NCBI GenBank assembly: GCA_964501355.1
Contig: CAZCSM010000002.1
Location: 5,884-69,883 of the forward strand
DNA: 64,000 nt
Direction of reading: 5' to 3'
Source of the DNA: an uncultured Candidatus Saccharibacteria bacterium
GTDB lineage: Bacteria > Patescibacteriota > Dojkabacteria > CAZCSM01
The notes under the pieces are model-generated. The model made no database searches. It was not told the DNA's origin and saw nothing but the letters and a program-made list of their open reading frames with translations. The first letter of the stretch is position 1. The number at the start of each line of letters is the position of its first letter. This document shows, piece after piece, positions 17,807-40,994 of the stretch. Made by a program: the position numbers and the translations under genes.

Positions 17807-18694
17807 ATGAAGAAAAGAGTTTTGGTAACTGGTGCGAGCGGATTCGTCGGCCCGTATCTTGTTGCTGAATTAGAAAATTCAGGCTATGAGGTTTTTGGAA
17901 TGGATCGGTCCGCCGGTTCGGATTTTCAAGCGGATTTATTAGATCCGGATTCTTTGGATCAAGTTGTTAGAAAGACGGACCCTGACTATATCTGTCATCT
18001 TGCCGGTTTCAGCTCGGTGAAAGATAGTTTTGACAATCCCGAACTTTGTAAAAAGATTAACGTCGATGGGACGAGGAATTTATTATCTTCCGTCAAAAGG
18101 TTTTGTCCGAATGCTCGAGTGTTAATTATTACCTCAGCCCACGTTTACGGTGAGCCGGAGTACAATCCAATTGATGAACTTCACCCGCTGAATCCAAACA
18201 GCCCATATGCAGAAAGCCGTGTTGAGCAAGAAACGCTGGTATTAGACTCCGGTTTAGATGTCGTAATTTCCCGAAGTTTCAATCATACCGGGCCGGGACA
18301 GCAAAGGGGCTTTGTTTGTCCAGATTTCATCTATGAGGTGAAGGAACTTTTAGCCGGAAAATGCGAAGAAATTAAGGTTGGGAATTTATCTGCTGAACGG
18401 GATATAAGCGATGTGAGAGATGTTGTAAAAGCCTATCGTTTGCTTCTGGAAAAAGGCAAAACAGGTGAAATTTATAATGTTTGTTCAGGACGAGCTGTTT
18501 CAATTCAATCTATATTGGATTCGATTTTAAGTCTGGCTGAACTGGACGCATCCAAAGTCATTGTTGATCCCGAGAAATTTCGACCGGTAGATGTTCCCCT
18601 CATGTATGGCGATAATTCCAAAATTAAGAAATTGGGGTGGGAACCCGAGATTGGAATTGAGGAGACATTGGGAGATATGTGGGAGAAAAAGTAA
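17807..18694 (+). CDS. NAD-dependent epimerase/dehydratase, likely GDP-4-dehydro-6-deoxy-D-mannose reductase (Rmd-like)
   Basis: KRVLVTGASGFVGPYLVAEL Rossmann; ~295 aa short-chain fold; lies just downstream of gmd, as rmd does in GDP-D-rhamnose clusters. Confidence 0.55.
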   Translation: MKKRVLVTGASGFVGPYLVAELENSGYEVFGMDRSAGSDFQADLLDPDSLDQVVRKTDPDYICHLAGFSSVKDSFDNPELCKKINVDGTRNLLSSVKRFCPNARVLIITSAHVYGEPEYNPIDELHPLNPNSPYAESRVEQETLVLDSGLDVVISRSFNHTGPGQQRGFVCPDFIYEVKELLAGKCEEIKVGNLSAERDISDVRDVVKAYRLLLEKGKTGEIYNVCSGRAVSIQSILDSILSLAELDASKVIVDPEKFRPVDVPLMYGDNSKIKKLGWEPEIGIEETLGDMWEKK

Positions 18695-18736: not shown

Positions 18737-18780
18737 CAGTAATACAGTAATACTGTAATACTGTAATACTGTAATACTGA
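18737..18780. repeat. tandem 8-nt microsatellite (taatactg x ~5)
   Basis: cagtaatacagtaatactgtaatactgtaatactgtaatactga read directly. Confidence 0.8.
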
Positions 18781-18825: not shown

Positions 18826-19197
18826 CTATCTTGTGGCACAGTTGTTTACTGATGATTGTACGGACGATAAAGCCATTTTTAATTCATTAGTATCTGCTTT
18901 CAGCCCGTTCAAGTCCTTCCCTAGGTCTGCTACATCCATTTGTAATCTAGAGACATCTTTGCGAGATTCATTAGTATCTACTCTTAATCCAGCTACATCA
19001 CGTTTCAATTCCGTGCTGTCTGATTGTAATCCGCTTATGTCGGTTCTCAACCCACCTATTTCTCTTTTCAGTTCTGCCGTATCAGTTTTCAAGCCAGTAA
19101 GATCGTTTGCAATTGTAGCGATATTCTTGTTAATTTCATCAAAGTCTTGTTGAAGAGCCTTTTGTATTAAGATTGCGTCGTCTTTTGTAAGTGCCAT
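18826..19197 (-). CDS. small heptad-repeat coiled-coil protein (about eleven tandem 7-aa units, consensus x-x-G-L-K/R-x-D)
   Basis: LTGLKTD TAELKRE IGGLRTD ISGLQSD STELKRD VAGLRVD TNESRKD VSRLQMD VADLGKD LNGLKAD. Confidence 0.55.
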   Translation of the reverse strand: MALTKDDAILIQKALQQDFDEINKNIATIANDLTGLKTDTAELKREIGGLRTDISGLQSDSTELKRDVAGLRVDTNESRKDVSRLQMDVADLGKDLNGLKADTNELKMALSSVQSSVNNCATR

Positions 19198-26623: not shown

Positions 26624-27334
26624 ATGAAAAATTATTTGCAACATTTACAGCAACAGGGTGATAATGATGTTAGCCTAACAAGAAAGATTGAATATATAAA
26701 GCATAATTTTGGTAAATATCTTACAGAACTAAATAAGAAATCATCAGTTCTCTCGATTGGTCCCGGAATTGGAGCTTTAGAAGAATACATGAATTCTCGA
26801 GGAGTTAGCAATATAGATCTTATTGATAATGACGAGAATGTGCTTAATTTCATAAAAACAAAGTTTAAGGTTAACAATGTTTTCAAAACAGAGAATATTG
26901 CGGAAATAAAAAACAAGTTACAAAAGTATGATGCTATATTTTTGATTCAAGTTTTTGAACATATTCCTCAGTCTCAATATAAGTCGTTTTTGTATACTTT
27001 GGTTGATTGTTTAAAGAGCAATGGAAAAATATTTATAGTTGTGCCTAATGGTGGGAATCCTCTAAATTTATTAGAACGATATCATGATTTGCAACATGTA
27101 AGTTCTTTTACGGAAGATTCTTTGAAAGAGTTGCCTGATTTCTGTGAGATAACAGACGTTAAAGTTGAGGTAAGAAGTTTTGACATACCTCCTTACTCAA
27201 TTGTAAACTTAGCTCGCATTTTTATGCAAAAACTGCTTCATTGGATGATAATTTCTCTACTAATAATTAACGGTGGTGTATATCAGAAAATAATGGCACC
27301 AAACATCACTTTAATTATAAAGAAAAAGAGATAA
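26624..27334 (+). CDS. class I SAM-dependent methyltransferase
   Basis: motif I VLSIGPGIGALEE, motif II DLIDNDE, post-II DAIFLIQVFEHIP. Confidence 0.65.
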   Translation: MKNYLQHLQQQGDNDVSLTRKIEYIKHNFGKYLTELNKKSSVLSIGPGIGALEEYMNSRGVSNIDLIDNDENVLNFIKTKFKVNNVFKTENIAEIKNKLQKYDAIFLIQVFEHIPQSQYKSFLYTLVDCLKSNGKIFIVVPNGGNPLNLLERYHDLQHVSSFTEDSLKELPDFCEITDVKVEVRSFDIPPYSIVNLARIFMQKLLHWMIISLLIINGGVYQKIMAPNITLIIKKKR

Positions 27335-27371: not shown

Positions 27372-28607
27372 TTGAAAATTCTCTTGTTTAAAATAAAGTT
27401 ATTTTTATTTAATCCATTTGTAATTTCAATTGGATTTACAGTGCTTGCAAATCTTATCCAGGTTTTTGCATTTATGGCACAGAAAAATTTGGATGATAGC
27501 AACTTTTCTCTTTTGAATTGGGGGATATATGTTTTTACAATTCTAAACATTCCCTCTGAGTCATTAATTAAATGGGTCACAATTGAGCTTGGTAAAATAG
27601 ATATTGAAAAAAGAACAGATTATCTTATCACTATTGCCCGTAAATCTTTTGTTCCATTTTATCTAATGTTTTCAATAATATTTGCGGGAATATCTTTGCA
27701 GAAAAATTCTGATTTTACAATTGTTTCGATTTGTTTAATTTCTGCATTAATTGCTTTTTGGTCAATTTTCCCAAGAGCATATCTGAATGTAAGGGAAAGA
27801 TACTTAGAAATGAATTTGGTACTATTAACCATACCTGTAATTAGATTAATATTTACAGTTTTTTTTATAGCCAATGGTAATGTGGTCTTATTATTCTGGG
27901 GGCTTGTATTGTCTTCTATCATTGGTACTCTTTTATCATATGTTTTCCTATTTAATGATTTAGGGTTAAATTTGAAATACTTATTTAATAGCTTATCGAA
28001 TCAAAACTCTTTTCAATTTACAAATAAGATTTTAAACATAGTAGGGAATGTATTTTTACAAATAGCTTTAAGTACTTTTTGGCTTGTTGACGGTTTGGTT
28101 TTAAAGAATTTTCTGGGTGATTATGATTATAGCGTTTACGTTTCGTATTCATATATTTATAAATTTCCGATGTTTGCTGCAATCGGTGTGGCGCCTGTGC
28201 TTTTGGGTAAATCTGTTTTATCTGAAGCAAATAGAATTGAATTAAAGAAAACTTTACGAAAAAGCATTTTGATAATTTTTGGTTTGTTTGGAAGTTTTCT
28301 TCTAATAGAAATATTATTTGAAGGGAGATTACTAGAACTTTTGGGTTATACTAGATATTTTAAACAGGGATTTAGTTTTATATTTGGATTGGCGTGGCTT
28401 GTCCAGACTTTAGTATACTTTGTATTTACATATTTGTTGAAGATAAAAGCTAATCGGAAAACTTATGTTGCAATATTTTTATACAGCTTGAGTTTCATAA
28501 TTGGTTTGTACGTTTTTCGTGATAGTATATTTAGTGTAATGTGGTTTGTTTTAGGACAGGGATTATTTTTCATAATTGTTAATTTTGCCTTGTTGTTAAA
28601 GAAATGA
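27372..28607 (+). CDS. polytopic membrane protein, candidate Wzx-like oligosaccharide flippase (start uncertain: TTG 27372 or ATG 27474)
   Basis: ~12 hydrophobic helices over 411 aa inside a glycan cluster; no catalytic motif. Confidence 0.4.
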   Translation: MKILLFKIKLFLFNPFVISIGFTVLANLIQVFAFMAQKNLDDSNFSLLNWGIYVFTILNIPSESLIKWVTIELGKIDIEKRTDYLITIARKSFVPFYLMFSIIFAGISLQKNSDFTIVSICLISALIAFWSIFPRAYLNVRERYLEMNLVLLTIPVIRLIFTVFFIANGNVVLLFWGLVLSSIIGTLLSYVFLFNDLGLNLKYLFNSLSNQNSFQFTNKILNIVGNVFLQIALSTFWLVDGLVLKNFLGDYDYSVYVSYSYIYKFPMFAAIGVAPVLLGKSVLSEANRIELKKTLRKSILIIFGLFGSFLLIEILFEGRLLELLGYTRYFKQGFSFIFGLAWLVQTLVYFVFTYLLKIKANRKTYVAIFLYSLSFIIGLYVFRDSIFSVMWFVLGQGLFFIIVNFALLLKK

Positions 28608-30334
28608 AGTTAATAAAACTTTTCATATTGTTTTGGGCTTACTTTATTATCGGAGCATGGGCGTTATCTGCTCTCGGTTATTTTTCAGTGTTGGGTTTCA
28701 GAATATTGATTGCCATATTTTTGGTTTGTATAGGTGTTTATATTATTAAATCAAAATTCCTATCTCAATCAAAAGTTTGTATTTTAAAAGCTAAGGCAAT
28801 ATACTTAACCTGCAAAAAAGATTTTTATGATTATCTTGCTTTCCTAGTCACAATATTCTGGTTCGTTTATTTCGCCTACTGTCTTTATAGAATAGTTCTT
28901 TTGCCTCCAGAAAACTGGGACAGTATGACATATCATTTAACGAAGATCGCGAATGCAAACCAGACAGGTACATTGTGGCATGATTCTACAATACCAGTAT
29001 CAAGAGTAAACGTTAGCCCGAGTAACTCCGAGATTTTCAATATGGTATTCTTTTCAATTTTGGGCAAAGATTTGATAGTAGAGATTCCACAGCTAATGGG
29101 GGCATTCTTCACCGTAATAGGTTTAGTATTTATCGTCGTTAGGCATTTCAAAGTCGATTGGCAAAAAGCTGTAATTGCATCATTATCTTTATTGACGATT
29201 CCTCTTTTTATATCTCAAAGTTACACTACTCAAAACGATCTTTTGTTTGTAGCGGTTTCGATAATTTCGATGTTATTTACTTTGGAATATTATAACTATA
29301 AATCTTTCTCTAATCTTTTATTTTGTATTATTTCAGTAAGTATTTTGGCGGGACTTAAATTAAGCGGTCTAATTGTAGCATTTCCTTGTTGCCTAATGGT
29401 TCTTCTGAGGTACATGGATTCCTTCAAAACTAATTGGAAGAATACCTCAAAATTAATAAAAGACGTTATTTTGGCATTGGTTATTTTTTTGACTTTAGCT
29501 TTGCTCAATTATATTATCGCAAAGATTTATTATGGTAAATTCACATATTTACCAAATGATTATAAAGCTATCTGGGGGATTGATACTTTTTTAGAGAATC
29601 TGAGACATTTTCATAGTTGGATATATGTTACAGGCGGAGAAGTTATCAGCCATGATACTGGTAGTATTGGTATGCTTGCCAAGGTAATGATCCCTTTGTT
29701 TCTCGTTGGCTTCATATTGGATTTCCTTAATTCAGAGAGAAGAAAAGGTGGGCGGATGATTATTTTCTTTGCACCAATATTCTTTACTCTTATATTTTTA
29801 TTTTCACATACTCCAGATCCTTGGGATTTAAGATTAGTTTTGTTGTTGCCGATAATCTGCGTTTATTTTGGAACTGTGTTTTTTATAAATCTTAAAAACA
29901 AGTTCATTGGTGGTTTCGTATTTTGTTACATTGTTATGTTTGTGTTTAATACCGTAACTGTTTTTTATAACGCAGATAAGCCTAAATTAATAATTTCCCT
30001 TGATAAATATCAATCCGGTTATGGGTTTTCAACCATTGGAGATGTTTTTGCTTATCGTCCAGACATCTCCATCTTCGAGAAAGACAATCTGTCTTCGGCA
30101 GACATCTTGTTTCTGGGCAGTGAGGATTCTTGGGTTTATCCATATTATAGATCTGATTGGAGAAATAAAATCGTTTTTACAGATGAAGATAATTTACCAC
30201 AAATGATTCAGAATCAAACTTATAAATATGTATTATTAGAGAGATCGAAAATAGATTTGGTTATTAATTATGTACCAAGTCATTATGTGGTGTTAGCAGA
30301 AGATAATTTCTTTAGAATTTATAAATTTTACTAA
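28604..30334 (+). CDS. GT-C-like polytopic membrane protein (ArnT/PMT/oligosaccharyltransferase-like architecture) candidate
   Basis: ~430-aa multi-TM N-terminal part with early loop LPPENWDSMTYHL (acidic-aromatic loop as in GT-C enzymes) and ~150-aa soluble C-terminal domain. Confidence 0.35.
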   Translation: MKLIKLFILFWAYFIIGAWALSALGYFSVLGFRILIAIFLVCIGVYIIKSKFLSQSKVCILKAKAIYLTCKKDFYDYLAFLVTIFWFVYFAYCLYRIVLLPPENWDSMTYHLTKIANANQTGTLWHDSTIPVSRVNVSPSNSEIFNMVFFSILGKDLIVEIPQLMGAFFTVIGLVFIVVRHFKVDWQKAVIASLSLLTIPLFISQSYTTQNDLLFVAVSIISMLFTLEYYNYKSFSNLLFCIISVSILAGLKLSGLIVAFPCCLMVLLRYMDSFKTNWKNTSKLIKDVILALVIFLTLALLNYIIAKIYYGKFTYLPNDYKAIWGIDTFLENLRHFHSWIYVTGGEVISHDTGSIGMLAKVMIPLFLVGFILDFLNSERRKGGRMIIFFAPIFFTLIFLFSHTPDPWDLRLVLLLPIICVYFGTVFFINLKNKFIGGFVFCYIVMFVFNTVTVFYNADKPKLIISLDKYQSGYGFSTIGDVFAYRPDISIFEKDNLSSADILFLGSEDSWVYPYYRSDWRNKIVFTDEDNLPQMIQNQTYKYVLLERSKIDLVINYVPSHYVVLAEDNFFRIYKFY

Positions 30335-30350
30335 TTTGGAATAGATTGCC

Positions 30351-31085
30351 ATGCAGAAATATTCACATAAGGGAGATCAAATATTAAAATCTTTAGATTC
30401 TGCCAATAACTTCACCAATTGGATGTACGAAGTTGTGTCAAAGAGATTGAAAGGTGATATCTTAGAGGTCGGAAGTGGATTTGGGACCTATTCTCAAAAG
30501 TTGGTTGCAGATAAAAGATTTGAAAACTCCAAATTTACTTTAAGCGATATCGACAGTGGATATGTTAAGTCTTTAAGGCACAAGTATAAGGATAATAAGA
30601 ATGTACAAGTAGTTGAATTGGATATTGAATCAAAAAAACAAAAATCAAATTTTGAAGAGAGTTATGATTCGATTTTCGCTTTAAATGTATTCGAGCATAT
30701 AGGAGATGATAATAATGCTTTAAGAAATGCTTACAGCTTACTTAAAAAAGACGGTTATTTGGTACTTATCTTGCCGAATTACAAATTCTTATTTAATACT
30801 TTAGATAAATCTGTAAATCATCACCGTCGTTACAACAAAAATGAAATTTTGGAAAAGTTGAAACAAACTAAGTTTAAACTGGTTGAATTATCTTACTTCA
30901 ACTCTGTTGGCGTAATAGGCTGGTTTTTAAATGGTAACATATTGAAAAAGGATGAGATAGATTCTAATACTGGGTTTCTGTTAAAGATATATGATGCAAT
31001 AATTCCATATTGGAAGTACATAGAAAGATTATTTATAAAGAAAATCTGTGGGTTGTCGCTATTCGTAGTTTTAAGAAAAGAGTAA
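30351..31085 (+). CDS. class I SAM-dependent methyltransferase
   Basis: ILEVGSGFGTYSQKL motif I, DSIFALNVFEHIGDD motif, 244 aa. Confidence 0.65.
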   Translation: MQKYSHKGDQILKSLDSANNFTNWMYEVVSKRLKGDILEVGSGFGTYSQKLVADKRFENSKFTLSDIDSGYVKSLRHKYKDNKNVQVVELDIESKKQKSNFEESYDSIFALNVFEHIGDDNNALRNAYSLLKKDGYLVLILPNYKFLFNTLDKSVNHHRRYNKNEILEKLKQTKFKLVELSYFNSVGVIGWFLNGNILKKDEIDSNTGFLLKIYDAIIPYWKYIERLFIKKICGLSLFVVLRKE

Positions 31086-31163: not shown

Positions 31164-31664
31164 ATGAAAACAGACAAGAAAATTGTTAAATATTCAGATC
31201 TTTCTAAACTTAAAGAGAAGTATAAAAAGCAAAAGAAAACTACAGTTTTCACTACGGGTTGTTATGATATTTTGCACCTTGGGCATGTGATTCATTTCAA
31301 TTATTGTAAATCCAAAGGTGATATCTTAATCGTGAGTGTAGGTAATGATAAAAATGTTCGTGAATTAAAAGGTCCTTCTCGACCAATTAATTCAGAGTCT
31401 TTTCGTGCTAGAATGATTGCGGCACTTGAGATTATAGATCATGTCGTCATCAGTGAGGAGATGGGGATTATGGATCATGACAAATCGGTTGAGCTTTTGA
31501 AACCAAATTTTTACGTTGTTCCGGGTACGGATGGTTATTTGGATGGGAAGAAGAAACTTGTTGAAAATAATGGGGGAAAACTGATAGCATGTAAAAGACT
31601 TCCTCCAGAGAATAAGAAGGGTGGAATTTCTACTACTATGATTGAGAAAGAATTGGGAAAATGA
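31164..31664 (+). CDS. cytidylyltransferase-like nucleotidyltransferase (TagD / RfaE domain II-like)
   Basis: TTGCYDILHLGHVIHFNYCKSKGDILIVSVGND carries the (H/T)xGH motif of the cytidylyltransferase superfamily; 166 aa. Confidence 0.65.
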   Translation: MKTDKKIVKYSDLSKLKEKYKKQKKTTVFTTGCYDILHLGHVIHFNYCKSKGDILIVSVGNDKNVRELKGPSRPINSESFRARMIAALEIIDHVVISEEMGIMDHDKSVELLKPNFYVVPGTDGYLDGKKKLVENNGGKLIACKRLPPENKKGGISTTMIEKELGK

Positions 31665-31689: not shown

Positions 31690-33399
31690 ATGCTCCGTAC
31701 AAGCCTTGTGTTGATATTGTTGTTTCTCATTCTTAATCTTATTGGGCTGTTATTTTCAAAATTATTTTTGAAAAAACTACGATCTTTTGATTACCCTGTT
31801 TTGGGCTTATCCTCTTTTTTCATTTTAAGTTCCAACCTTTTCCTGTTAGACGTTGATCATAGGATAACGATAATTTTATTATCGATTCTTTCTATGATTG
31901 CCATTAGGTATGTTAAAAAAGAAGATTTGTTTAAAATATTACTTAACTTGGTAATATTTCTATCTACAACTGTAGTTTTTCTTTCGACTTATTTATTTGT
32001 CTTTGGGTTTGATCGTAACATAACAGGCTATAACATATGCAATGATTCTGTAGTACATGCAACATTTTCTCGAAATCCTGAGGATAATTATTTAATAGAG
32101 GATAAGGTCGAAGGTCGCTATTATCCGAGAGCTGTTCATTCGGGGATAAATTTGATAAGCAATGTTGCACACGAAGATACGAGTAAACTTGTCATTCCAA
32201 TGGGGATATATTTTTATGCTTTTGCGGTTTTTCCTTTGATAAGAATCGTAGAATTATTTTTTGATTTGAAGAAAAGCAATTCTCGTTTCTTTGAGAACAA
32301 ATTATTTCTGTACGGAATACCAATAATTAGTTTAAGTACATATTATTCTCTGGCGATTGCATTCCATGGATTCTTGACTCAGGTTTCTTACTTATCCTTT
32401 GTGTTTCTAATTCCTTTCTATATTAATTACAGAAAATTGTATAAAAAGGATATTTTATTAATGCTTTTGGTTGTTGCCAGTATTATAAGTTATGGTCCTG
32501 CAGCTTCGATTATAATTTTCGCTGAATTTACAATTTCTTTTCTATATACTCTTTTTGGAAAAGTTAGGTTGGATATAAAGGTATTGGTTATGAAGTTGTT
32601 AGTTTATATTACGTTAGGTTTATTGTTTGCGGGAGTTAATTTAATAGATTTATTTCATGTTGCTTTAGCAATTGTGGAGCCAGGAGGGGAGGCGCAATCG
32701 TCTATTGGCAATCTTGTTGGGAAATTGGATTTAGACATCCTAACCGGTGTATGGGACGAATCTGATTATCGGATAGTAACTGTCAAGGATACCTTTGTTG
32801 GACAAGCATTTTTATTAATGAACTCATTGTTCTGGGTAGTGTTGGGCTCATTAATTTGTAGAATTAAAAAGCTTAAAAATAACAGGCCGTTAACGATTGT
32901 TATCTTTTCTTTAGTTTTTGCATATCTATTTATGGACTTCTATTCTGGGAATCCATATATGTTAAGTAAATTGCTAACTCCATTGACACCAGCTCTTTGT
33001 GTGCTTTTTCTTTTGGGAATAATTTATTTATGTAAAAATTGGATAGTCAAGTATTCTTTGCTATTAGTTTATTTGTTAGGATTTTTCTATTCGAATTATG
33101 TATTGATGTCGAATATTACGGTATTGCCATATGATTCTCTCTTTGAATTAGATGATCTTCGAACAAGGATTGAAAACTATGATTCTGTGTTATTTCATAC
33201 CAGTAATGATTGGGCTGTATATTATGTAGATAGTTCGGAGGTAGATATTAAGGGAATTCATTATTTTCAAGACACAAATTTTAAAGATATTGTTGATTAT
33301 GATTTAATAGTCTATGATACTGCTGATATTCCAGAAAATTCAATAAGTGGATGCTTGATAAAAGAAAGTTTCGGTAAATATATACTTTGTAAAAACTAA
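31690..33399 (+). CDS. large polytopic membrane protein, hypothetical (possible GT-C-like or polymerase-like)
   Basis: 569 aa, >12 hydrophobic helices with one ~60-aa loop; no motif recognised. Confidence 0.45.
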   Translation: MLRTSLVLILLFLILNLIGLLFSKLFLKKLRSFDYPVLGLSSFFILSSNLFLLDVDHRITIILLSILSMIAIRYVKKEDLFKILLNLVIFLSTTVVFLSTYLFVFGFDRNITGYNICNDSVVHATFSRNPEDNYLIEDKVEGRYYPRAVHSGINLISNVAHEDTSKLVIPMGIYFYAFAVFPLIRIVELFFDLKKSNSRFFENKLFLYGIPIISLSTYYSLAIAFHGFLTQVSYLSFVFLIPFYINYRKLYKKDILLMLLVVASIISYGPAASIIIFAEFTISFLYTLFGKVRLDIKVLVMKLLVYITLGLLFAGVNLIDLFHVALAIVEPGGEAQSSIGNLVGKLDLDILTGVWDESDYRIVTVKDTFVGQAFLLMNSLFWVVLGSLICRIKKLKNNRPLTIVIFSLVFAYLFMDFYSGNPYMLSKLLTPLTPALCVLFLLGIIYLCKNWIVKYSLLLVYLLGFFYSNYVLMSNITVLPYDSLFELDDLRTRIENYDSVLFHTSNDWAVYYVDSSEVDIKGIHYFQDTNFKDIVDYDLIVYDTADIPENSISGCLIKESFGKYILCKN

Positions 33400-33401
33400 T
33401 C

Positions 33402-35741
33402 ATGAAAATAGGATTTCTTTGTGAACGAATGCTTCTTGGTTTCGGTGTTGATCTTGTAATTCACAATCAAGCAGAGTTACTGGGTCAGATGGGTCATGAC
33501 GTTACAGTTTACACTTTGCGAACGGATGAAACTTTTAATAATAAATATTATCGAATCATCAAACTCAATTCCGGATTGCACCTCAATCCTCTCAAAACAG
33601 AGCTTGGAGTTGTAAAAAATACCGCTAGATTTCTTAACAATCAAGATGTCGATGTTTGGATATCTGAAACGTACCCATTCCATATATTGACATGGTTTTT
33701 GAAGAAACCCGTCTTCATAATAGAGTATGGCACAAGTTCAAGTGAAGGAATGAAGTTTAAGCAAAAGATAAATTTTTTCTATCAGAAATATGTTGATAGA
33801 TTATTATTCTTCCCTTTTTCAAAAAAGATAATAACAATTTCACAATATTTGAAAGATGCTCAGGTTCCTTTCTATTTACGACATAAGGCTATTCCTCAGC
33901 ATTTAGGAGTAGATCATTATATTAATGATTTCAAGGAAAGGAAAGGCAACTCATCTGCATTGAAAAAAGATTTAAAGTTGAACAAGGATGATTTCGTTTT
34001 GCTTTATGTAGGCAGATTGAGACATGAGGCTCAGCCGTATAAAGGTGTTGCTGATTTGATTGAAATATATCAGCAGGTTAAAAAGAAAAATTCAAAAGTA
34101 AAGCTGATAATGGCAGGTTATGGAGATGAAGAGGATAAAAAGAATTTGGAGAAAAAGGGAATAATTGCGTTACCTTGCGTTCCCAAAGAGGATCTAGAAG
34201 AATTATACGATTTGTGTGATTTATGTGTTTCTGCAACTAAGTGGGAGGGATTTAATCTTCCTATGTTTGAAGCACAGACATTCGGTAAAGTTCCGGTGAT
34301 TTATAATATCGGGCCTCATCCGGAACTGATGAATGATGGAGAACATGCTTTTCTTGTTAATGATCAGGATGAATTTATAGAAAAGGTTCTTTTGCTATCA
34401 AAGGATGAAAATTTGAAGAAGTCTATGGAGAAAAAGGCAATTGAACATTCTTCCAATTTTACATGGAAGAAAAATGTGGAGAAATTTGAAAAACTATTGA
34501 GGAAAGAGGTAAAGATAAAAAAGGAATATAAAAAAGATTGGGTTGATCTGATAACTCTTAACTATGATGGAAAATCAATAACGGAAGACTTGTTTAATTC
34601 TCTGAAGAAGAACAAATACAAAAATGTTAATTATGTAATGGTTGATAATGGATCTCATGATGGTTCCGCCGATTACATAGAAAAGAAATTCCATAATGTA
34701 AAAGTAATTCGTTCAAATAAGAACCTATTTTTTCCAAGAGGAAATAATCTTGCTATAAAACAAACGAACTCAGAATTTATAATGTTGGTTAACAATGACA
34801 TTATTGTCGAGCCGGATGCAATATCAAAAATGGTGAATAGAATGAAAAGTGATCCAATGATTGTAGCGGTTGCAAGTAAGATGTTGTCAATGAAAAATAA
34901 AAGAGTGATAGACTCTATTGGAACTGTGATGATGCCCGATGGTTCACCTTTTAATCGCGGAATTGGGCAGATTGATTTGGGACAATATGATAAAAGCGAA
35001 GATGTATTTGGTGCTTGTTTTGGCAGTGTTTTGCTGAGAAGGTCTTCGTATGAAAATGTAGTTGGTCCGATGGACAATGATTATTTCGGATATTTTGAAG
35101 ATGTAGATTGGTGTTTCCGTGCTAATATGTTGGGATATAAGATTGTCACTGAACCGGAAGCTATTGTTTATCACGCTCACAGTGCAACTTCCGCAAAGAG
35201 GAATTATGATTGGAAATTTTTCTTAATTCAGAGAAATTTTATCTGGACTATTCTCAAAAATTTTCAAAGAAATAAGGCTCTTCGAGGTGTAGTAAGAAGG
35301 TTGCTTGCATTATCAAGGGAGTTTGTTTTCTCCAAATCGCTTAGTAGGAAATGGGCAAGCTTGAAAGTTATTATGGCAACTATAATTTGTTCTCCGAAGT
35401 TTCTTGTAAAGAGATTAGATTTGCAAAGGAAAAGAATGGTCTCGGATGCTGAAATCTTCCGATTTTCTATTAACGAGTTTTCCTTCTTTGAACCAGTTAA
35501 ATATGAACCTATTTATTCTCTTGATAATTTAGAGAAGACTTTTGAAAGACTTGCTAATTTGAACAAAAAAGATATAAAGATTTATAAAGAAATCAGAAAT
35601 TTGAATCTGACAAAATCTGCTTCCGATGGACAGTGGGATAAAAAAGCAATTAAACTTTTGAAATCTTTGGAAAGTAGAATTGGTCGAGAAGACACAAAAA
35701 GATTTTTGGAATTTATTGTCGAGAAGAAGTCTTGGATATAA
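33402..35741 (+). CDS. two-domain glycosyltransferase: N-terminal GT4 (GT-B) fused to C-terminal GT2 (GT-A)
   Basis: EGFNLPMFEAQTFGKVPVIYN (GT4) in first half; ITLNYDGK..VMVDNGSHDGS..LVNNDIIVEPD (GT2 DxD) in second half; 779 aa. Confidence 0.7.
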   Translation: MKIGFLCERMLLGFGVDLVIHNQAELLGQMGHDVTVYTLRTDETFNNKYYRIIKLNSGLHLNPLKTELGVVKNTARFLNNQDVDVWISETYPFHILTWFLKKPVFIIEYGTSSSEGMKFKQKINFFYQKYVDRLLFFPFSKKIITISQYLKDAQVPFYLRHKAIPQHLGVDHYINDFKERKGNSSALKKDLKLNKDDFVLLYVGRLRHEAQPYKGVADLIEIYQQVKKKNSKVKLIMAGYGDEEDKKNLEKKGIIALPCVPKEDLEELYDLCDLCVSATKWEGFNLPMFEAQTFGKVPVIYNIGPHPELMNDGEHAFLVNDQDEFIEKVLLLSKDENLKKSMEKKAIEHSSNFTWKKNVEKFEKLLRKEVKIKKEYKKDWVDLITLNYDGKSITEDLFNSLKKNKYKNVNYVMVDNGSHDGSADYIEKKFHNVKVIRSNKNLFFPRGNNLAIKQTNSEFIMLVNNDIIVEPDAISKMVNRMKSDPMIVAVASKMLSMKNKRVIDSIGTVMMPDGSPFNRGIGQIDLGQYDKSEDVFGACFGSVLLRRSSYENVVGPMDNDYFGYFEDVDWCFRANMLGYKIVTEPEAIVYHAHSATSAKRNYDWKFFLIQRNFIWTILKNFQRNKALRGVVRRLLALSREFVFSKSLSRKWASLKVIMATIICSPKFLVKRLDLQRKRMVSDAEIFRFSINEFSFFEPVKYEPIYSLDNLEKTFERLANLNKKDIKIYKEIRNLNLTKSASDGQWDKKAIKLLKSLESRIGREDTKRFLEFIVEKKSWI

Positions 35742-36936
35742 GCTTCTTAACCTTGTTTTTTAGAGCGTTAACATTAAAGACTTTGTTCTCTAGAATTTCT
35801 ATTGTCTTTCTTTGATTATTAATTTCTCCGTCTAAGTGGGCAACGGCATTTTGGAAATTTTCAATATGCTGATTCTTTTCTTCTAGTTCTTTTTGAAAGT
35901 TTTCAATATGCTGATTTTTTTCTTTCAGTTCTTTTTGGAAGTTTTCAATATGCTGATTTTTTTCCTTCAGTTCTTTTTGGAAGTTTTCAATATGCTGATT
36001 TTTTTCACTCAGTTCTTTTTGGAAGTTTTCAATATGTTCATTCTTTTCATCTATTGTTTTTACAAGATCTGGTATTTGTGAGGTTTCTTTCTGTAGATTC
36101 TCTATATGTTTCTGTTTGGCTTCTGCTTCTTTCAAAAGCTTTTGAACTAGTTCTTCTTTCTCTTCGATTATCCTTGTTTGGTTTTCTACTAATTGGTGAA
36201 CCTCAAGCATTGGCTTTTTGTTTTGCGGAAGATCGCTAATTCCCTTTGTTTTTTCTGCAGAGATTTTGAATATGTATTGATATGCAATCGATTCCTTTTT
36301 AGTAATTAGATTAATGAACGCGGATGTTGTTTTTAATCCAAGCTTTTCAAGTTCTTCATTTAAGTACTTTGTTGGAAAATCGAAAGTTGTGTAATGTAGT
36401 TCATTAACAAACAGGTCTGCTTTTTTGATGAGATTACTGAATTTCTTTAAAGTGAAATATTGAAGATGTGTGTCATCAAGAATTCCTCTTTCTTCCGATT
36501 CGAAATCGCCTCTCAATAGTTCCAACCTGATTGATACGTGTGCAATGTTTGGAATAGACACAATTATGAATCCCTTCGGTTTTATGTATGATTTCAGTCT
36601 CTTCAGTAACTCCAGAGGATTCTTTAAATGTTCAAGCAAATCTGCGACTATAATATAGTCGAAACTATTTTTTTCGAACTCTTTTTCCCATATACTATCT
36701 TCAACATTCGCGATGACAACCTTCTTACACACCTTCTTTGCGATTTCCGCATCTTCCTTTGACAACTCTATTCCAGAGACTTGGCAGTTTTTTTGTTGAA
36801 TTAAATATTCCGCAAGGTAGCCGCTACTGCACCCTATATCAAGTATTTCGGCACCATCATCAATCATATTAACAATTTTGGTAAGCGAAACATTTTCATT
36901 TGAAACATCAACTTTTTGGTGGGAATATTTGCTCAT
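35713..36936 (-). CDS. SAM-dependent methyltransferase fused to a tandem-repeat coiled-coil tail; WbdD-like chain terminator/ruler candidate
   Basis: N-terminal ILDIGCSSGYLAEYL..IIVADLLEHL MT motifs; C-terminal ~150 aa of 15-aa repeats EKNQHIENFQKELKE x4-5; last gene of the wzm-wzt operon. Confidence 0.65.
   Translation of the reverse strand: MSKYSHQKVDVSNENVSLTKIVNMIDDGAEILDIGCSSGYLAEYLIQQKNCQVSGIELSKEDAEIAKKVCKKVVIANVEDSIWEKEFEKNSFDYIIVADLLEHLKNPLELLKRLKSYIKPKGFIIVSIPNIAHVSIRLELLRGDFESEERGILDDTHLQYFTLKKFSNLIKKADLFVNELHYTTFDFPTKYLNEELEKLGLKTTSAFINLITKKESIAYQYIFKISAEKTKGISDLPQNKKPMLEVHQLVENQTRIIEEKEELVQKLLKEAEAKQKHIENLQKETSQIPDLVKTIDEKNEHIENFQKELSEKNQHIENFQKELKEKNQHIENFQKELKEKNQHIENFQKELEEKNQHIENFQNAVAHLDGEINNQRKTIEILENKVFNVNALKNKVKKLISKTSSRQ
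35845..36048. repeat. tandem 45-nt repeat (about 4.5 copies) encoding the coiled-coil repeats of the WbdD-like gene
   Basis: plus-strand unit gttttcaatatgctgatttttttcyttcagttctttttggaa repeated head-to-tail. Confidence 0.85.
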
Positions 36937-37820
36937 TAATTTATTTTACAAATATCATATATTTCTTGGTGCATGGGGAAAAAGTCAAATTCATCATTAA
37001 TTTTATATTTATTAAACATGGATCTTCTCTTAAAGAATAATATTTTACAAGAAGGCTCAGATAATCCGGGATCTGCATTATTATTTATAATTCCTGTGCT
37101 TTTCGAATTCTTTCTTCCTGAACTCAATCCAATAATAACTAGATTCATTTCTACATGTAGGCCTCTTGTATAACCTTGGTCGAGTTTGATTAGAGTTTTA
37201 TTGTTTCGTTTTATAGATCTCGTAGATGATTCAGTATAATAGATTTCGTTTTCATAGACAAATACTGAATGTGGATGAAATATATTCACGATTTCTTTCC
37301 TTTGACCAACAATCTCAAATATGTATCCGTTTTTGGCAGAACTCCACCTCTCTCCTTTTTTGAGTCCGAATCCAGATATAAATAACTTATCTTTGTTTGA
37401 GTATAGAGAATTTAAGTGATGCGTATCATTTCTACCTTCTGAATCATTGGGCTTCCATAGAATTTCTGGTTTATCAAATTTTAGGTTCTTTTGATCATAA
37501 TTGTATTTTATTACGGAGTCATTTCCTGTGGATACAACGTAAAGATTATTGTCTTTTAATACAATAGAGTGTCCGTCGATTACTTCGGCAAGATCACTCT
37601 TTGCCAATACATCTGAGGTTTTTTTATCGATTATCACAATACCATTTGGTTGCGATTGGTAGAGAGCGAATATAAAGTTTTCATTTTGGGCGACTTCAGT
37701 AAATCCTGTGTTTGGAAAGTCTATGTTTATGCAGGATACTGAATGCTCTTCCGTATCTAAGATTGAAATATTTTTTTTGTTTCCATCTGTTTGATTACAA
37801 AAGGATATTGCTAATTTCAT
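36936..37820 (-). CDS. hypothetical protein, co-operonic with wzt and the WbdD-like gene
   Basis: 294-aa ORF, 3-nt gap to wzt and 1-nt overlap with downstream gene; no motif recognised. Confidence 0.55.
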   Translation of the reverse strand: MKLAISFCNQTDGNKKNISILDTEEHSVSCINIDFPNTGFTEVAQNENFIFALYQSQPNGIVIIDKKTSDVLAKSDLAEVIDGHSIVLKDNNLYVVSTGNDSVIKYNYDQKNLKFDKPEILWKPNDSEGRNDTHHLNSLYSNKDKLFISGFGLKKGERWSSAKNGYIFEIVGQRKEIVNIFHPHSVFVYENEIYYTESSTRSIKRNNKTLIKLDQGYTRGLHVEMNLVIIGLSSGRKNSKSTGIINNNADPGLSEPSCKILFFKRRSMFNKYKINDEFDFFPMHQEIYDICKIN

Positions 37821-37823
37821 AGT

Positions 37824-39014
37824 TTACCTCCATGTATGTGGTAATTGCAAAAGTCCGTTCTTTTTAGTGGTTGCCTTGAAATTAACAAACTCGTTAAATT
37901 CAGAGCTGTCATAAACCTCGTAGATGAGATTATTTTTTGGATCGCCTTTGAATATGCTTGCCTTATAATAAAAACTTCCTTTGTTGAAATAATTGGGATT
38001 AAAACTCAGCTTTATCTTATTCACACCTCTATTTATCTTTGGCGAGAATCCATCATAAAATGAATTATTTCCACAAATCCAAGCGTTTGTATTTTTATCA
38101 AATATAGCCAAACCCACGAATAAATCATTTTCTGGCTTTTCAACTTCTAAATTTATCTCGAAAGTTATGTTTTCCTCACTTGTGAAACTTCTTTTTTCTA
38201 GACGCTGTTTGGCATAAGTTTTTATCTCCTTGATGAAATGTAAATCTTTAACTGTAGAAGAATCATTCGAAAGTATAGGGTTGCCTTCATTTTGATAATG
38301 TGATACCACCTCTTCCGTCCCATTATCAATCCTCACCTTTCCTCCATCAATCCAAATAACCCTATCACAAAACTCTTTCACACTATCCATCCCATGGCTC
38401 ACAAACACCACAGTCTTTCCTTCTTTTTTAAAATTTCTAAACACATCAAAACATTTTTCCTGAAAACCAGCATCGCCGACTGCCAGTACTTCATCAACTA
38501 AATAAATATCAGCATCTGATTGAATGGCGATGGAGAAGGCGAGTCGTACTTGCATGCCTGAAGAATAATTCTTTACCGGCATATCGATGAAATCTCTCAC
38601 TTCTGCAAAATCTACAATTTCATCAAATTTCTTCTCTAAAAACTTCTTCGTCATTCCGAGAATTATCCCGTTAAGAAAAATGTTTTCTCTTCCCGATAAT
38701 TCAGGGTTGAATCCAACACCAAGCTCCAAGAATGGAGTCATTTGACCATTGATTTTTACACTTCCTTTATCCGGCTCGTAAATGCCTGCGAGTGTTTTTA
38801 AAAGTGTAGATTTTCCGCTACCGTTTCTTCCGATAATTCCCAAAAACTCTCCCTTTTTCACTTCGAAAGAAACATCGTTTAAAGCATTAAATTCTCGGTA
38901 CTTTGTTTTGTGAAAAGGGTTGAGAACGTAGTGTTTAATCTGCGTCTTCTGTTCAAAAGGGATTCGGAAGGTTTGGGATAAGTTATTTACTTTTATTGCA
39001 ATAGCATCGTTCAT
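37824..39014 (-). CDS. wzt: polysaccharide ABC exporter ATP-binding protein with ~150-aa C-terminal extra domain (CBM-like)
   Basis: Walker A GRNGSGKST, signature YSSGMQVRLAFS, Walker B IYLVDEVLAVGD; extension beyond the NBD to 396 aa. Confidence 0.75.
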   Translation of the reverse strand: MNDAIAIKVNNLSQTFRIPFEQKTQIKHYVLNPFHKTKYREFNALNDVSFEVKKGEFLGIIGRNGSGKSTLLKTLAGIYEPDKGSVKINGQMTPFLELGVGFNPELSGRENIFLNGIILGMTKKFLEKKFDEIVDFAEVRDFIDMPVKNYSSGMQVRLAFSIAIQSDADIYLVDEVLAVGDAGFQEKCFDVFRNFKKEGKTVVFVSHGMDSVKEFCDRVIWIDGGKVRIDNGTEEVVSHYQNEGNPILSNDSSTVKDLHFIKEIKTYAKQRLEKRSFTSEENITFEINLEVEKPENDLFVGLAIFDKNTNAWICGNNSFYDGFSPKINRGVNKIKLSFNPNYFNKGSFYYKASIFKGDPKNNLIYEVYDSSEFNEFVNFKATTKKNGLLQLPHTWR

Positions 39015-39079
39015 ATTTAAATTGGTTGGAGATTGTTAAAACATTGATAAAACATAGTTCAAACGTTGTTGAAACGTAG

Positions 39080-39463
39080 TTACAAATTTTTAGATAAATA
39101 TTTAATCAAGTTACTTATCTTCACTGATATGGTAACACAATTCTTTCGAAGTTCTTCTGATTTTGCAGAACCTATAAAGTTTTGATTCTCTGCAATATGC
39201 AACATGCTTCGCACTTCTCCGCAAGATCCTTTGGAAATGTATAAGAATCTTATAAGTTCTCTGTTGCTTTGTCTTTCGTAACCTTCAGCAATGTTATTGC
39301 TTATTGATAAAGTTGCTCTTAATATCTGATCTTTGAAATAGTAATCCCTAAATTTCTTATCTCCAAATATCTGAGATATGTCTATGAATAATTGTATTCC
39401 TAACTGCCAAATTTCTAAATCTTCAAAATTTGTTTTACTATGTTTGATCGATGTTTTATCCAT
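39080..39463 (-). CDS. four-helix-bundle protein (TIGR02436-like), copy 2 of 3, inserted between wzm and wzt
   Basis: LEIWQLGIQLF..ATLSISNNIAEGYERQSNRELIRFLYISKGSCGEVRSMLHIA; flanked by inverted repeats aaaacatagttcaaac / gtttgaaactatgtttt. Confidence 0.75.
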   Translation of the reverse strand: MDKTSIKHSKTNFEDLEIWQLGIQLFIDISQIFGDKKFRDYYFKDQILRATLSISNNIAEGYERQSNRELIRFLYISKGSCGEVRSMLHIAENQNFIGSAKSEELRKNCVTISVKISNLIKYLSKNL

Positions 39464-39543
39464 GTTTGAAACTATGTTTTATCTTTACAATGAAAGCGCT
39501 TCGCTAGATCCTTCGTTGCACTCTGGATGACACTGTTTGTTAT

Positions 39544-40338
39544 TTACAACCGTTCTGCAATCCCTTTGATATTTTTCTTAAAAAAATACAGACTGATGAA
39601 AAATGCCGGTAATATTATTGCCAGCATTATTAGGTTCGTTTTTACAAATTCTATCTTCCCATAAATCAGTGCCGATCTTGCGGAAAGAATGATTCTAGTT
39701 AATGGATTTAATGCAACAACGGTGCTTATTGTTCCGGTCAACATTTCAATCGGGTATATGATTGGTGTAAGGTAGAAAAACACTTGCAATACTAGTTCCC
39801 AAATCGGGGCAATATCTCTGAATCGGACATGTAAAATACTTATAATAAATCCGAAAGTTAATATTAGTATGTATTGGATGAAAATTAAAAAGATGAAATA
39901 TAAAAATGATTGGAATGTGACATCTGTTTTAAATACAATTGCGAATATTCCGAAAATACAGAGGTTTATTCCATAATTTATTATGGCAATTATTGTTGAA
40001 GATACCACCGCAATTTCCTTTGGAAAATTTACCTTCAGAATAATTCCGGCTTTTCCTAGAATTGAATGCATACCGTTAATTGTTCCTTCTGAGAAGAATT
40101 GAAATGTAATTGTTCCGAGTAATAGGTATAAAGGGTAATTTGAGATTGAGTCATTTCCACCGAAGAATTTAGAAAAAACAGTATACAGAATCAGAAACAT
40201 CATAAACGGACGGATAAGCACCCATGCAAATCCGAGAAATGAATTATTATATCTGATTTTGAAGTCTGTCTTTACAAGCTCGACCAGAAGGTCTTTAAGA
40301 TTTTCGTTGGATCGATTCATATGTATGTTCAAAGTCAT
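39544..40338 (-). CDS. wzm: polysaccharide ABC exporter permease (ABC-2 type)
   Basis: LVKTDFKIRYNNSFLGFAWVLIRPFMMFLILYTVFS matches the Wzm/TagG N-terminal signature; 6 TM helices; 264 aa. Confidence 0.75.
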   Translation of the reverse strand: MTLNIHMNRSNENLKDLLVELVKTDFKIRYNNSFLGFAWVLIRPFMMFLILYTVFSKFFGGNDSISNYPLYLLLGTITFQFFSEGTINGMHSILGKAGIILKVNFPKEIAVVSSTIIAIINYGINLCIFGIFAIVFKTDVTFQSFLYFIFLIFIQYILILTFGFIISILHVRFRDIAPIWELVLQVFFYLTPIIYPIEMLTGTISTVVALNPLTRIILSARSALIYGKIEFVKTNLIMLAIILPAFFISLYFFKKNIKGIAERL

Positions 40339-40339
40339 T

Positions 40340-40900
40340 TAAATGGAAGTCCCTTCTCCTTTTAGGAGAAGGTCAGGATGAGGTGATTGTGTTGTATTTA
40401 AACCTCACCCTATCCCTCTCCTATTAGGAGAGGGGACTAGAATACAATTTTGAAATAGCACGTCTTTATGATTGTATAACAAAAGGACTTCGTTTCAAAG
40501 TAGATTCAAAGTAGAGGCAGAATGAGGATGACTGGAACAAGAAATGGATCCCGTGTCGAAGCACGGGATGACGAAGTGAAATGACACCAGCTGTCATCGC
40601 GGGCGAAGACCCGCGATCTCGGAGTACATTGATTACTGACTTTTGTGAAAAACAGTAGTTTTATATTTAATCCGAGATCCCGCATCACACCCCGAGATTC
40701 GGGGCTGTGCGGGATGACATAATATCTTCTCCCCTGAAAAGGGGAGTGGTTGCGAAGCAACCGAGGGGTGTTACCGTACACCTTCCGCCACTAATAATCG
40801 GTTTATTATTCTTCGAGCGCAACGAAGTGGAGTCGAGAAGTTCTCGACTTCGCTCGAACAATAAACCATGTCTGATTCTCCACCAGTAGTGAGCTTGTCG
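40340..40900. repeat. palindrome-dense intergenic region: at least nine distinct short hairpin units of several families
   Basis: ccttctcct-ttt-aggagaagg; ccctctcct-att-aggagaggg; gatcccgtgtcg-aag-cacgggatgacg; tgaca-ccagc-tgtca; cgcggg-cgaaga-cccgcg; atcccgca..ccccga-gat-tcgggg..tgcgggat; ctcccct-gaaa-aggggag; ggttgc-gaa-gcaacc; ttattcttcgagcg..tcgagaa-g-ttctcga..cgctcgaacaataa. Confidence 0.8.
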
Positions 40901-40994
40901 AATTATGCGGAGAAGGACACTGTGCTATGCACTAGTTGCAAACGGTTGTTTATAGTACAATATTTCTATCTGAATTTTGGCTTAAAGATTTTTA

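Follow-up and report, generated by a model that had tools for sequence, protein, structure and literature searches.

The closest described counterparts of the gene treated here are chain terminators that work with ATP-binding cassette (ABC) transporters of surface glycans. WbdD of Escherichia coli O8/O9a and Klebsiella pneumoniae O3/O5 is encoded next to wzm-wzt, and the carbohydrate-binding module (CBM) of Wzt recognises the cap (PMC3482155, PMC5082667, PMC11231755). Insertions into the coiled coil of WbdD raise the modal chain length and truncations lower it (PMC5082667, summarising Hagelueken 2015); the coiled-coil ruler model has so far been based on few enterobacterial proteins together with engineered insertions and deletions. 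More generally, a terminator on the distal tip of an extended coiled coil, combined with a Wzt CBM, is a widespread and characteristic signature, in which the catalytic modules vary by system (PMC11231755). Here we describe a gene on the minus strand at positions 35713..36936 of a 64-kb stretch of contig CAZCSM010000002.1 (the window, meaning the whole stretch of DNA that was analysed), which encodes a methyltransferase followed by a helical stalk and is the last gene of a wzm-wzt operon. With moderate confidence, we read it as the chain-capping methyltransferase of a surface-glycan pathway that depends on an ABC transporter, in a bacterium of the Patescibacteria, also called the Candidate Phyla Radiation (CPR). 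This kind of system is known and widespread; what differs is the methyltransferase family and the phylum, where glycans of this sort are unstudied.

Two other groups of described proteins bear on the comparison. In K. pneumoniae O7 ORF6 and O12 WbbB, too, the coiled coil bears the terminator at its distal end (PMC11231755). Both are terminator-coiled coil-polymerase fusions, and many relatives of the protein described here are likewise fused, to a C-terminal GT2 module. Orthologs of O7 ORF6 in some species stop after the coiled coil (PMC11231755). The second is WsaE of Geobacillus stearothermophilus NRS 2004/3a, whose N-terminal methyltransferase caps a surface-layer (S-layer) glycan by 2-O-methylation; its gene overlaps wzt, and the glycan depends on an ABC transporter in a bacterium that has no outer membrane (PMC2943079). 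WsaE carries two rhamnosyltransferase domains, no repeat-built stalk has been described for it, and our comparison with it is one of architecture and genetics. With a CPR host, an S-layer or wall glycan is a likelier product than an O antigen. On this reading the strategy of pairing a terminator with a Wzt CBM would reach the CPR, whose surface glycans are essentially uncharacterised and whose surface probably mediates attachment to host cells.

The methyltransferase gene and its relation to WbdD

The open reading frame (ORF) reported by an earlier note on this DNA was borne out, with a length of 407 amino acids (aa), as was its placing of a class I S-adenosylmethionine (SAM) methyltransferase in the N-terminal half (Pfam Methyltransf_23, 3.3e-22; MetW, 2.8e-18). 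An AlphaFold2 monomer model, built from a 29-sequence alignment (mean predicted local distance difference test score, pLDDT, 83), has a Rossmann domain at residues 1-226 (36259..36936, minus strand), a poorly ordered linker at 227-243 and then two helices, 244-286 and 288-403, with a break near P290. The nearest solved structure is Bacillus cereus BCE_1332 (3cc8), and the homology spans the full domain, including the region past the Rossmann core. BCE_1332, from B. cereus ATCC 10987, is a structural-genomics entry described as a putative methyltransferase; at 230 aa it lacks a coiled-coil tail.

The stalk (residues 244-403; 35728..36207, minus strand) has I, L or V at every 'a' position of the heptad layout from 288 to 386. 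The C-terminal coiled coil claimed earlier thus stands as about 160 aa of predicted helix with an unbroken heptad register, while its assembly into an oligomeric coiled coil is presumed. Charged residues make up 37% of the tail, and the net charge is +6 in the last 25 residues (35716..35790, minus strand) compared with -9 in the remaining tail. We regard this basic C-terminal segment as a candidate anchor to the membrane or to a partner protein.

The gene had been called WbdD-like, and here a distinction has to be made. A BLASTP alignment to E. coli HS (O9) WbdD spanned 81 aa at 21% identity, at the SAM-binding motif only, and an hhalign comparison of the family profile with WbdD covered just 78 columns. 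Since the matches are confined to the SAM motif, the protein is not a member of the WbdD family. What does hold is a functional analogy in operon context, predicted coiled-coil stalk and putative CBM-type extension of Wzt, which agrees with the markers published for coiled-coil terminators (PMC11231755); the likeness to WbdD is one of architecture and genetic context, and in our best reading the protein would be a functional analogue. The differences are considerable. WbdD has 708 aa as against 407 aa, and its tail is a membrane- and WbdA-binding region of about 100 aa where this protein has a short basic segment. The kinase domain of the O9a/O3-type WbdD is absent here, as it is from the O8/O5 type: Pfam and NCBIfam matches of the protein included no kinase family, and only 17 residues link the methyltransferase to the helix. 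Unlike WbdD, the stalk is partly made of near-identical 14-aa repeats, and the host is a CPR bacterium without lipopolysaccharide (LPS).

Linkage to wzt across homologous loci

The methyltransferase gene is coupled to the gene upstream of it, as had been noted, the stop of that gene overlapping the start of the methyltransferase as TAATG. That upstream gene begins after a 3-nt gap from the end of wzt (37824..39014, minus strand), which encodes a 396-aa ABC-transporter ATPase (ABC_tran 1.7e-22, Wzt_C 1.9e-6). The nucleotide-binding domain of this Wzt is 39% identical to that of E. coli O9 Wzt. A putative CBM-type domain occupies about residues 245-396 (37827-38282, minus strand), assigned from a Wzt_C match slightly below the cutoff and from an alignment to the best Protein Data Bank (PDB) match, full-length Aquifex aeolicus Wzt (8dku/7k2t). 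The alignment spans query residues 27-330 and so reaches about 90 residues into the carbohydrate-binding domain.

The same association recurs widely. We collected 80 homologous loci from genome contigs and examined their neighbourhoods within 8 kb. A wzt gene was found in 62 of the 80, mostly immediately upstream and on the same strand, and wzm in 49. The loci come from CPR bacteria, cyanobacteria, Methylococcales, Actinobacteria, Firmicutes and one methanogen, an archaeon, and at many of them the Wzt alignment spans all 396 aa, carbohydrate-binding domain included. The loci nearest in the methyltransferase are largely from the CPR (Saccharimonadales, Peribacteria and Woykebacteria). Identity to the best relative in genome contigs is 40%, and a scan of JGI metagenome contigs returned only two relatives, at 40% and 49%. 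Fusion of the homologs to C-terminal GT2 modules is frequent (L003, L006, L010, L022 and P0246). The wzt linkage and the GT2 fusions connect the methyltransferase family with glycan assembly.

These data also bear on the simplest competing explanation, that the protein is a MetW- or UbiG-like methyltransferase of small molecules or proteins that is unrelated to glycans and lies in the cluster by chance. MetW and UbiG are the best named hidden Markov models, and homologs are labelled 'MetW' or 'benzoquinol methylase'. The scores nevertheless fall far short of the equivalog cutoffs, at 68.9 bits against 189.5 for MetW (TIGR02081) and 58.6 bits against 102.95 for UbiG. With the linkage to wzt and the frequent GT2 fusions also standing against it, this explanation is strongly disfavoured and we give it almost no weight.

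The 14-aa tandem repeat

A tandem DNA array does lie within the stalk region, as the earlier note had stated, with a period of 42 nt or 14 aa (EKNQHIENFQKELK) rather than 45 nt or 15 aa; the longer unit arose because the E opening the next unit was counted in. We place the array at 35849..36048 on the minus strand (about 4.7 copies, residues 297-362), using Tandem Repeats Finder and a register table. Tandem Repeats Finder itself reports 35849-36061, period 42, 5.1 copies, 87% matches and a score of 310, and the next-best tandem repeat in the whole 64-kb window scores 75.

The register layout gives five units, residues 297-366. They had been described as four to five perfect copies, which is an overstatement: the five are near-identical in part, and only two of them are identical at the protein level. 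Units 1 and 2 have the same protein sequence and are 1 nt apart; unit 3 has one residue changed, unit 0 has two, and unit 4 keeps its first ten residues and diverges thereafter. Pairwise differences range from 1 to 11 nt, the array shifted by one unit matches itself at 0.887 nucleotide identity, and neighbours share an exact run of 41 nt at most. A degenerate copy, KHIENLQKE, lies upstream of the array at residues 276-284, four residues out of register and separated from it by a proline-containing segment.

One 14-aa unit is exactly two heptads and would correspond to about 2.1 nm of helix rise, at 0.148 nm per residue. As the unit is in frame and two heptads long, gain or loss of a unit preserves both the reading frame and the coiled-coil register. 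As part of the explanation that we favour, we propose that the array expanded recently and made the stalk longer than the family norm.

With a repeat of this kind, it has to be asked whether the array was assembled correctly. At about 210 nt it exceeds typical short reads, the source is metagenome-assembled, and the protein (P0001) is found on a single contig of 80,883 bp. Logan assemblies of related runs break within the methyltransferase gene: two contigs from SRR31966183/SRR31966184 carry wzt and DUF4915 (upstream) genes identical to those of the window, one (L081) stopping inside the DUF4915 gene and the other (L082) at residue 176 of the methyltransferase, before the repeat. A unit number or array mis-assembled from short reads is nonetheless quite improbable in our estimate. 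The array leaves the reading frame intact, the heptad register continues without a break to either side of it, the substitutions that distinguish the units permit unique placement, and independent assemblies, complete genomes among them, show similar 14-aa arrays in homologs.

The repeat also raises the possibility, advanced earlier and an extension of the capping role rather than a competitor to it, that the locus is a contingency locus in which slippage or recombination shifts the copy number within a population and gives mixed glycan lengths. The sequence offers several points in favour. Neighbouring units differ by 1-5 nt and have exact stretches of up to 41 nt in common, and with an in-frame unit of two heptads every change would give a functional stalk. 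There is also a precedent in the polysialate O-acetyltransferase NeuO, likewise a glycan-modifying enzyme, whose in-frame tandem repeats encode heptads and whose activity is graded by natural variation in copy number (PMC3046976). In NeuO the unit measures 7 nt, three making one heptad, so that expression is switched on and off too, unlike with the 42-nt unit here; the NeuO repeats are N-terminal, form no coiled coil in the crystal structure and have no role in chain length. Against a contingency locus, the searches yielded no second copy-number allele: a single contig encodes the exact protein, whose sequence cluster has one member, the Logan contigs end before the repeat, and the JGI metagenomes hold nothing closer than 49% identity. 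Five 42-nt units are, moreover, far less mutable than the short-unit repeats of phase variation, and since the units carry distinguishing substitutions, the array is not freshly homogenised. Two further points in favour come from the family, namely close relatives in a sister clade that differ by many units and independent near-identical arrays in other lineages (see below). Taking these together, we consider variation within a population doubtful.

Stalk length across the family

An exhaustive search gave 740 cluster representatives at E<=1e-30. The typical member has 300-320 aa, with a tail of 75-90 aa and a K/R-rich end; the net charge of the last 25 residues has a median of +6 and is +4 or more in 42 of 48 homologs. 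A minority of the family has long tails, and these are typically periodic. Scytonema hofmanni UTEX 2349 (L080) carries SQLQETQIELERSQ about 11 times in a near-perfect 14-aa array, and Leptolyngbya FACHB-321 (L051) about eight near-perfect 14-aa units. Near-perfect arrays of 14-aa units are also found in Calothrix NIES-3974 (L036), Pleurocapsa CCALA 161 (L037) and one further locus (L035). The cyanobacterial arrays are Q-rich, with 4 to about 11 units and a nucleotide shift identity of 0.78-0.91, and are followed by a conserved aromatic-basic motif, FWKLRxxWFxxK, that is likely a membrane-binding helix and is more distinct than the C-terminal segment of the window protein. Other members are built on different units: a homolog from Peribacteria (L002) has a 46-aa unit in four copies, and units of 28 or 42 aa occur elsewhere.

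The clade nearest in stalk motif has HIxNLE where the window protein has HIENFQ. Four of its proteins, P0246, P0002, P0003 and P0004, have methyltransferase domains that are 75-89% identical and stalks of 31, 15, 11 and 1 HIxNLE-type units, respectively, with all spacings multiples of 14. P0246, of 1484 aa, carries a repeat domain and a GT2 module as further fusion partners. P0003 lacks the basic C-terminal segment and stops immediately ahead of the next GT4 gene. The loci of P0002 and P0003 (L084 and L086, from sibling samples) are syntenic. The downstream 5.4 kb of these loci is 98.3% identical at the DNA level compared with about 89% for wzt and the methyltransferase gene, and the jump in identity across the stalk suggests a recombination breakpoint there. 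A range of 1 to 31 units among close relatives means that stalk length is evolutionarily labile and changes by whole two-heptad units. From the sequences, these differences support a repeat-driven change in length over evolutionary time.

The family thus amounts to a natural allelic series, with near-identical catalytic heads on stalks of 1 to 31 units. Several of the arrays are in culturable cyanobacteria and Firmicutes, so that glycan length could be compared with unit number without engineering. We found no description of rulers made of near-identical two-heptad repeats or of a natural series of stalk lengths, although the key survey and the ruler paper lay outside our search and an earlier description is possible. 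The data also provide an annotation rule for proteins labelled 'MetW' or 'UbiG', namely a 14-aa periodic tail after a 3cc8-like methyltransferase beside wzt.

Proposed function of the methyltransferase and its stalk

We infer that this enzyme methylates chain ends and so terminates the chains, and that its stalk is an oligomeric ruler anchored by the C-terminus. In the mechanism that we propose, the neighbouring glycosyltransferases would lengthen a polyprenol-linked glycan on the cytoplasmic side of the membrane, the likeliest polymerase being the convergent GT4+GT2 protein encoded next to the operon. An oligomeric coiled-coil stalk of about 160 residues, up to about 24 nm long at full extension, would carry the methyltransferase head at its far end, and its basic C-terminus would lie at the membrane or on the polymerase. 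Any chain that has grown enough to touch the head would be methylated at the non-reducing end. Terminal methylation would stop extension and create the epitope for the C-terminal carbohydrate-binding domain of Wzt, which would read the methylated cap and commit the chain to export by Wzm-Wzt. Gain or loss of 14-residue units would then change the length of the stalk in discrete steps over evolutionary time.

Several observations weigh against this assignment. The similarity to WbdD is limited, and no published biochemical or glycan-structure data were found for any member of the methyltransferase family. The 150-aa C-terminal extension of Wzt matches Pfam Wzt_C with an E value of 1.9e-6 and a score of 28.4 bits, 2 bits under the gathering score of 30.4, and the carbohydrate-binding region searched alone against PDB sequences gave no match. 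In the stalk, F and K take turns at the 'd' positions of the repeat units, an arrangement that departs from a textbook core. The structural model being that of a monomer, coiled-coil formation and the oligomeric state are extrapolations from it, and the hydrophobic moment of the C-terminus, 0.40, is only moderate. Two further methyltransferases are encoded in the cluster (26624-27334 and 30351-31085), so the enzyme at 35713-36936 need not be the capper. Finally, termination itself might fall to the DUF4915 protein encoded immediately upstream, or this protein might be a partner that the methyltransferase needs.

Part of this evidence would fit a methyltransferase that decorates the glycan without terminating it. 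Internal residues or a precursor would be O-methylated, the coil would merely oligomerise the enzyme or dock it to glycosyltransferases, and chain length would be set elsewhere, by the DUF4915 protein, by Wzt or by enzyme stoichiometry. Such a role would be consistent with several methyltransferases in the cluster, and also with the family norm, tails of about 75-90 aa being enough to oligomerise or anchor a protein and short for a ruler. In addition, methylation by WsaE in vitro is independent of chain length (PMC2943079). On the other hand, the tight and phylogenetically broad linkage is to wzt and not to glycosyltransferases generally, and the pairing is with a Wzt that has a CBM-type domain, which in the literature counts as diagnostic of capping at the terminus (PMC11231755). 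It would also be hard to explain why the stalk has expanded in particular lineages if its length were irrelevant. On balance, we judge a purely decorating role unlikely.

The capping assignment can be taken further. The ruler may be a modular, rapidly evolving array of 14-residue units that retunes the exported glycan by steps of about 2 nm, possibly with heterogeneity within populations of this CPR bacterium and of the cyanobacteria that have near-perfect arrays, and with the DUF4915 protein as an added component. We offer this fuller scheme tentatively and hold it less probable than not by a wide measure. If it is true, glycan length would have a natural 'dial' that works in frame.

The DUF4915 gene

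The gene between wzt and the methyltransferase (36936..37820, minus strand; 294 aa) had been recorded as hypothetical. It can be identified as a DUF4915/TIGR03032 gene (Pfam DUF4915, 1.6e-12), and the AlphaFold2 model of its product (pLDDT 92.4) is an all-beta structure, a beta-propeller. Invariant residues are H135, N137, H184, R219 and E286. A Foldseek search with the model returned generic propellers only, and no mention of DUF4915 or TIGR03032 was found in the literature searched.

A DUF4915 gene also follows wzt in one cyanobacterium (L065:7028-7936) and in all three of the additionally sampled loci (L089:6001-6879, L090:6001-6882 and L091:6001-6900). In two of the sampled loci an APS kinase gene adjoins it, in one of them together with a gene for a CysQ-like phosphatase, which hints at terminal sulfation. 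The DUF4915 protein may also take part in terminal modification or in quality control. Found after wzt in several phyla, the propeller could represent a second, undescribed component of capping or quality control.

The operon and the glycan island

The operon begins with wzm (39544..40338, minus strand), which encodes an ABC-2 permease of 264 aa (ABC2_membrane, 2.8e-16; galactan Wzm/RfbD model, 8.5e-21). The gene order described earlier, with the methyltransferase last after wzm and wzt, was right except for one gene that had been missed, a 23S_rRNA_IVP ORF encoding a four-helix bundle between wzm and wzt (39080..39463, minus strand; Pfam, 8.9e-29). Upstream of wzm, a promoter-like site, TTGAAA-16-TACAAT, with 10 of 12 matches, is weakly indicated at 40471..40498 on the minus strand; the total count in a promoter and terminator scan of the region was not above that in shuffled sequences.

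At its 3' end the methyltransferase gene overlaps by 29 nt with a convergent gene (33402..35741, plus strand) for a 779-aa GT4 + GT2 glycosyltransferase (Glycos_transf_1, 1.2e-26; Glycos_transf_2, 5.2e-19). By analogy with the dual-module polymerase WbdA (PMC11231755), this protein is the candidate polymerase.

The operon is part of a glycan-biosynthesis island about 24 kb long (19329-43394) that also encodes GlmS, four GT2 and two GT4 glycosyltransferases, an epimerase and a TagD-like cytidylyltransferase (31164-31664). Three large hydrophobic membrane proteins of the island have no Pfam match (27372-28607, 28604-30334 and 31690-33399). The GC content is 0.30-0.33 across 26-40 kb of the window compared with 0.36-0.39 elsewhere.

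The host was placed using the glycyl-tRNA synthetase encoded in the window, whose closest named relatives (57-61% identity) are found only in Patescibacteria/CPR, including Dojkabacteria, Levybacteria, Moranbacteria and Gracilibacteria. With a host from this group, an LPS O antigen is not the product; a glycan associated with the wall or linked to an S-layer is more likely.

Other features of the window

The 23S_rRNA_IVP ORF is bracketed by imperfect inverted repeats of 34-42 nt (39036-39069 and 39437-39470) that are 82% complementary and resemble the stem of an rRNA intervening sequence. The same arrangement is present in the Logan contig L081. Within the operon, the ORF may represent a cassette insertion or a site of RNA processing.

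Between wzm and a GT2 gene lies a divergent intergenic region of 656 nt (40339-40994) with locally higher GC. It contains a GC-rich hairpin (40548-40569, minus strand) and two spurious-looking ORFs (40506-40781 and 40707-40889). A similar sequence, tcatccagagtgcaacgaaggatc, also occurs just upstream of the 23S_rRNA_IVP ORF. The region has no Rfam match; no Rfam family was matched in the window as a whole. Outside the island, an 8-nt unit, GTAATACT, is repeated 5.1 times with 96% matches at 18739-18779, in the intergenic space between the ORFs 17807-18694 and 18826-19197.

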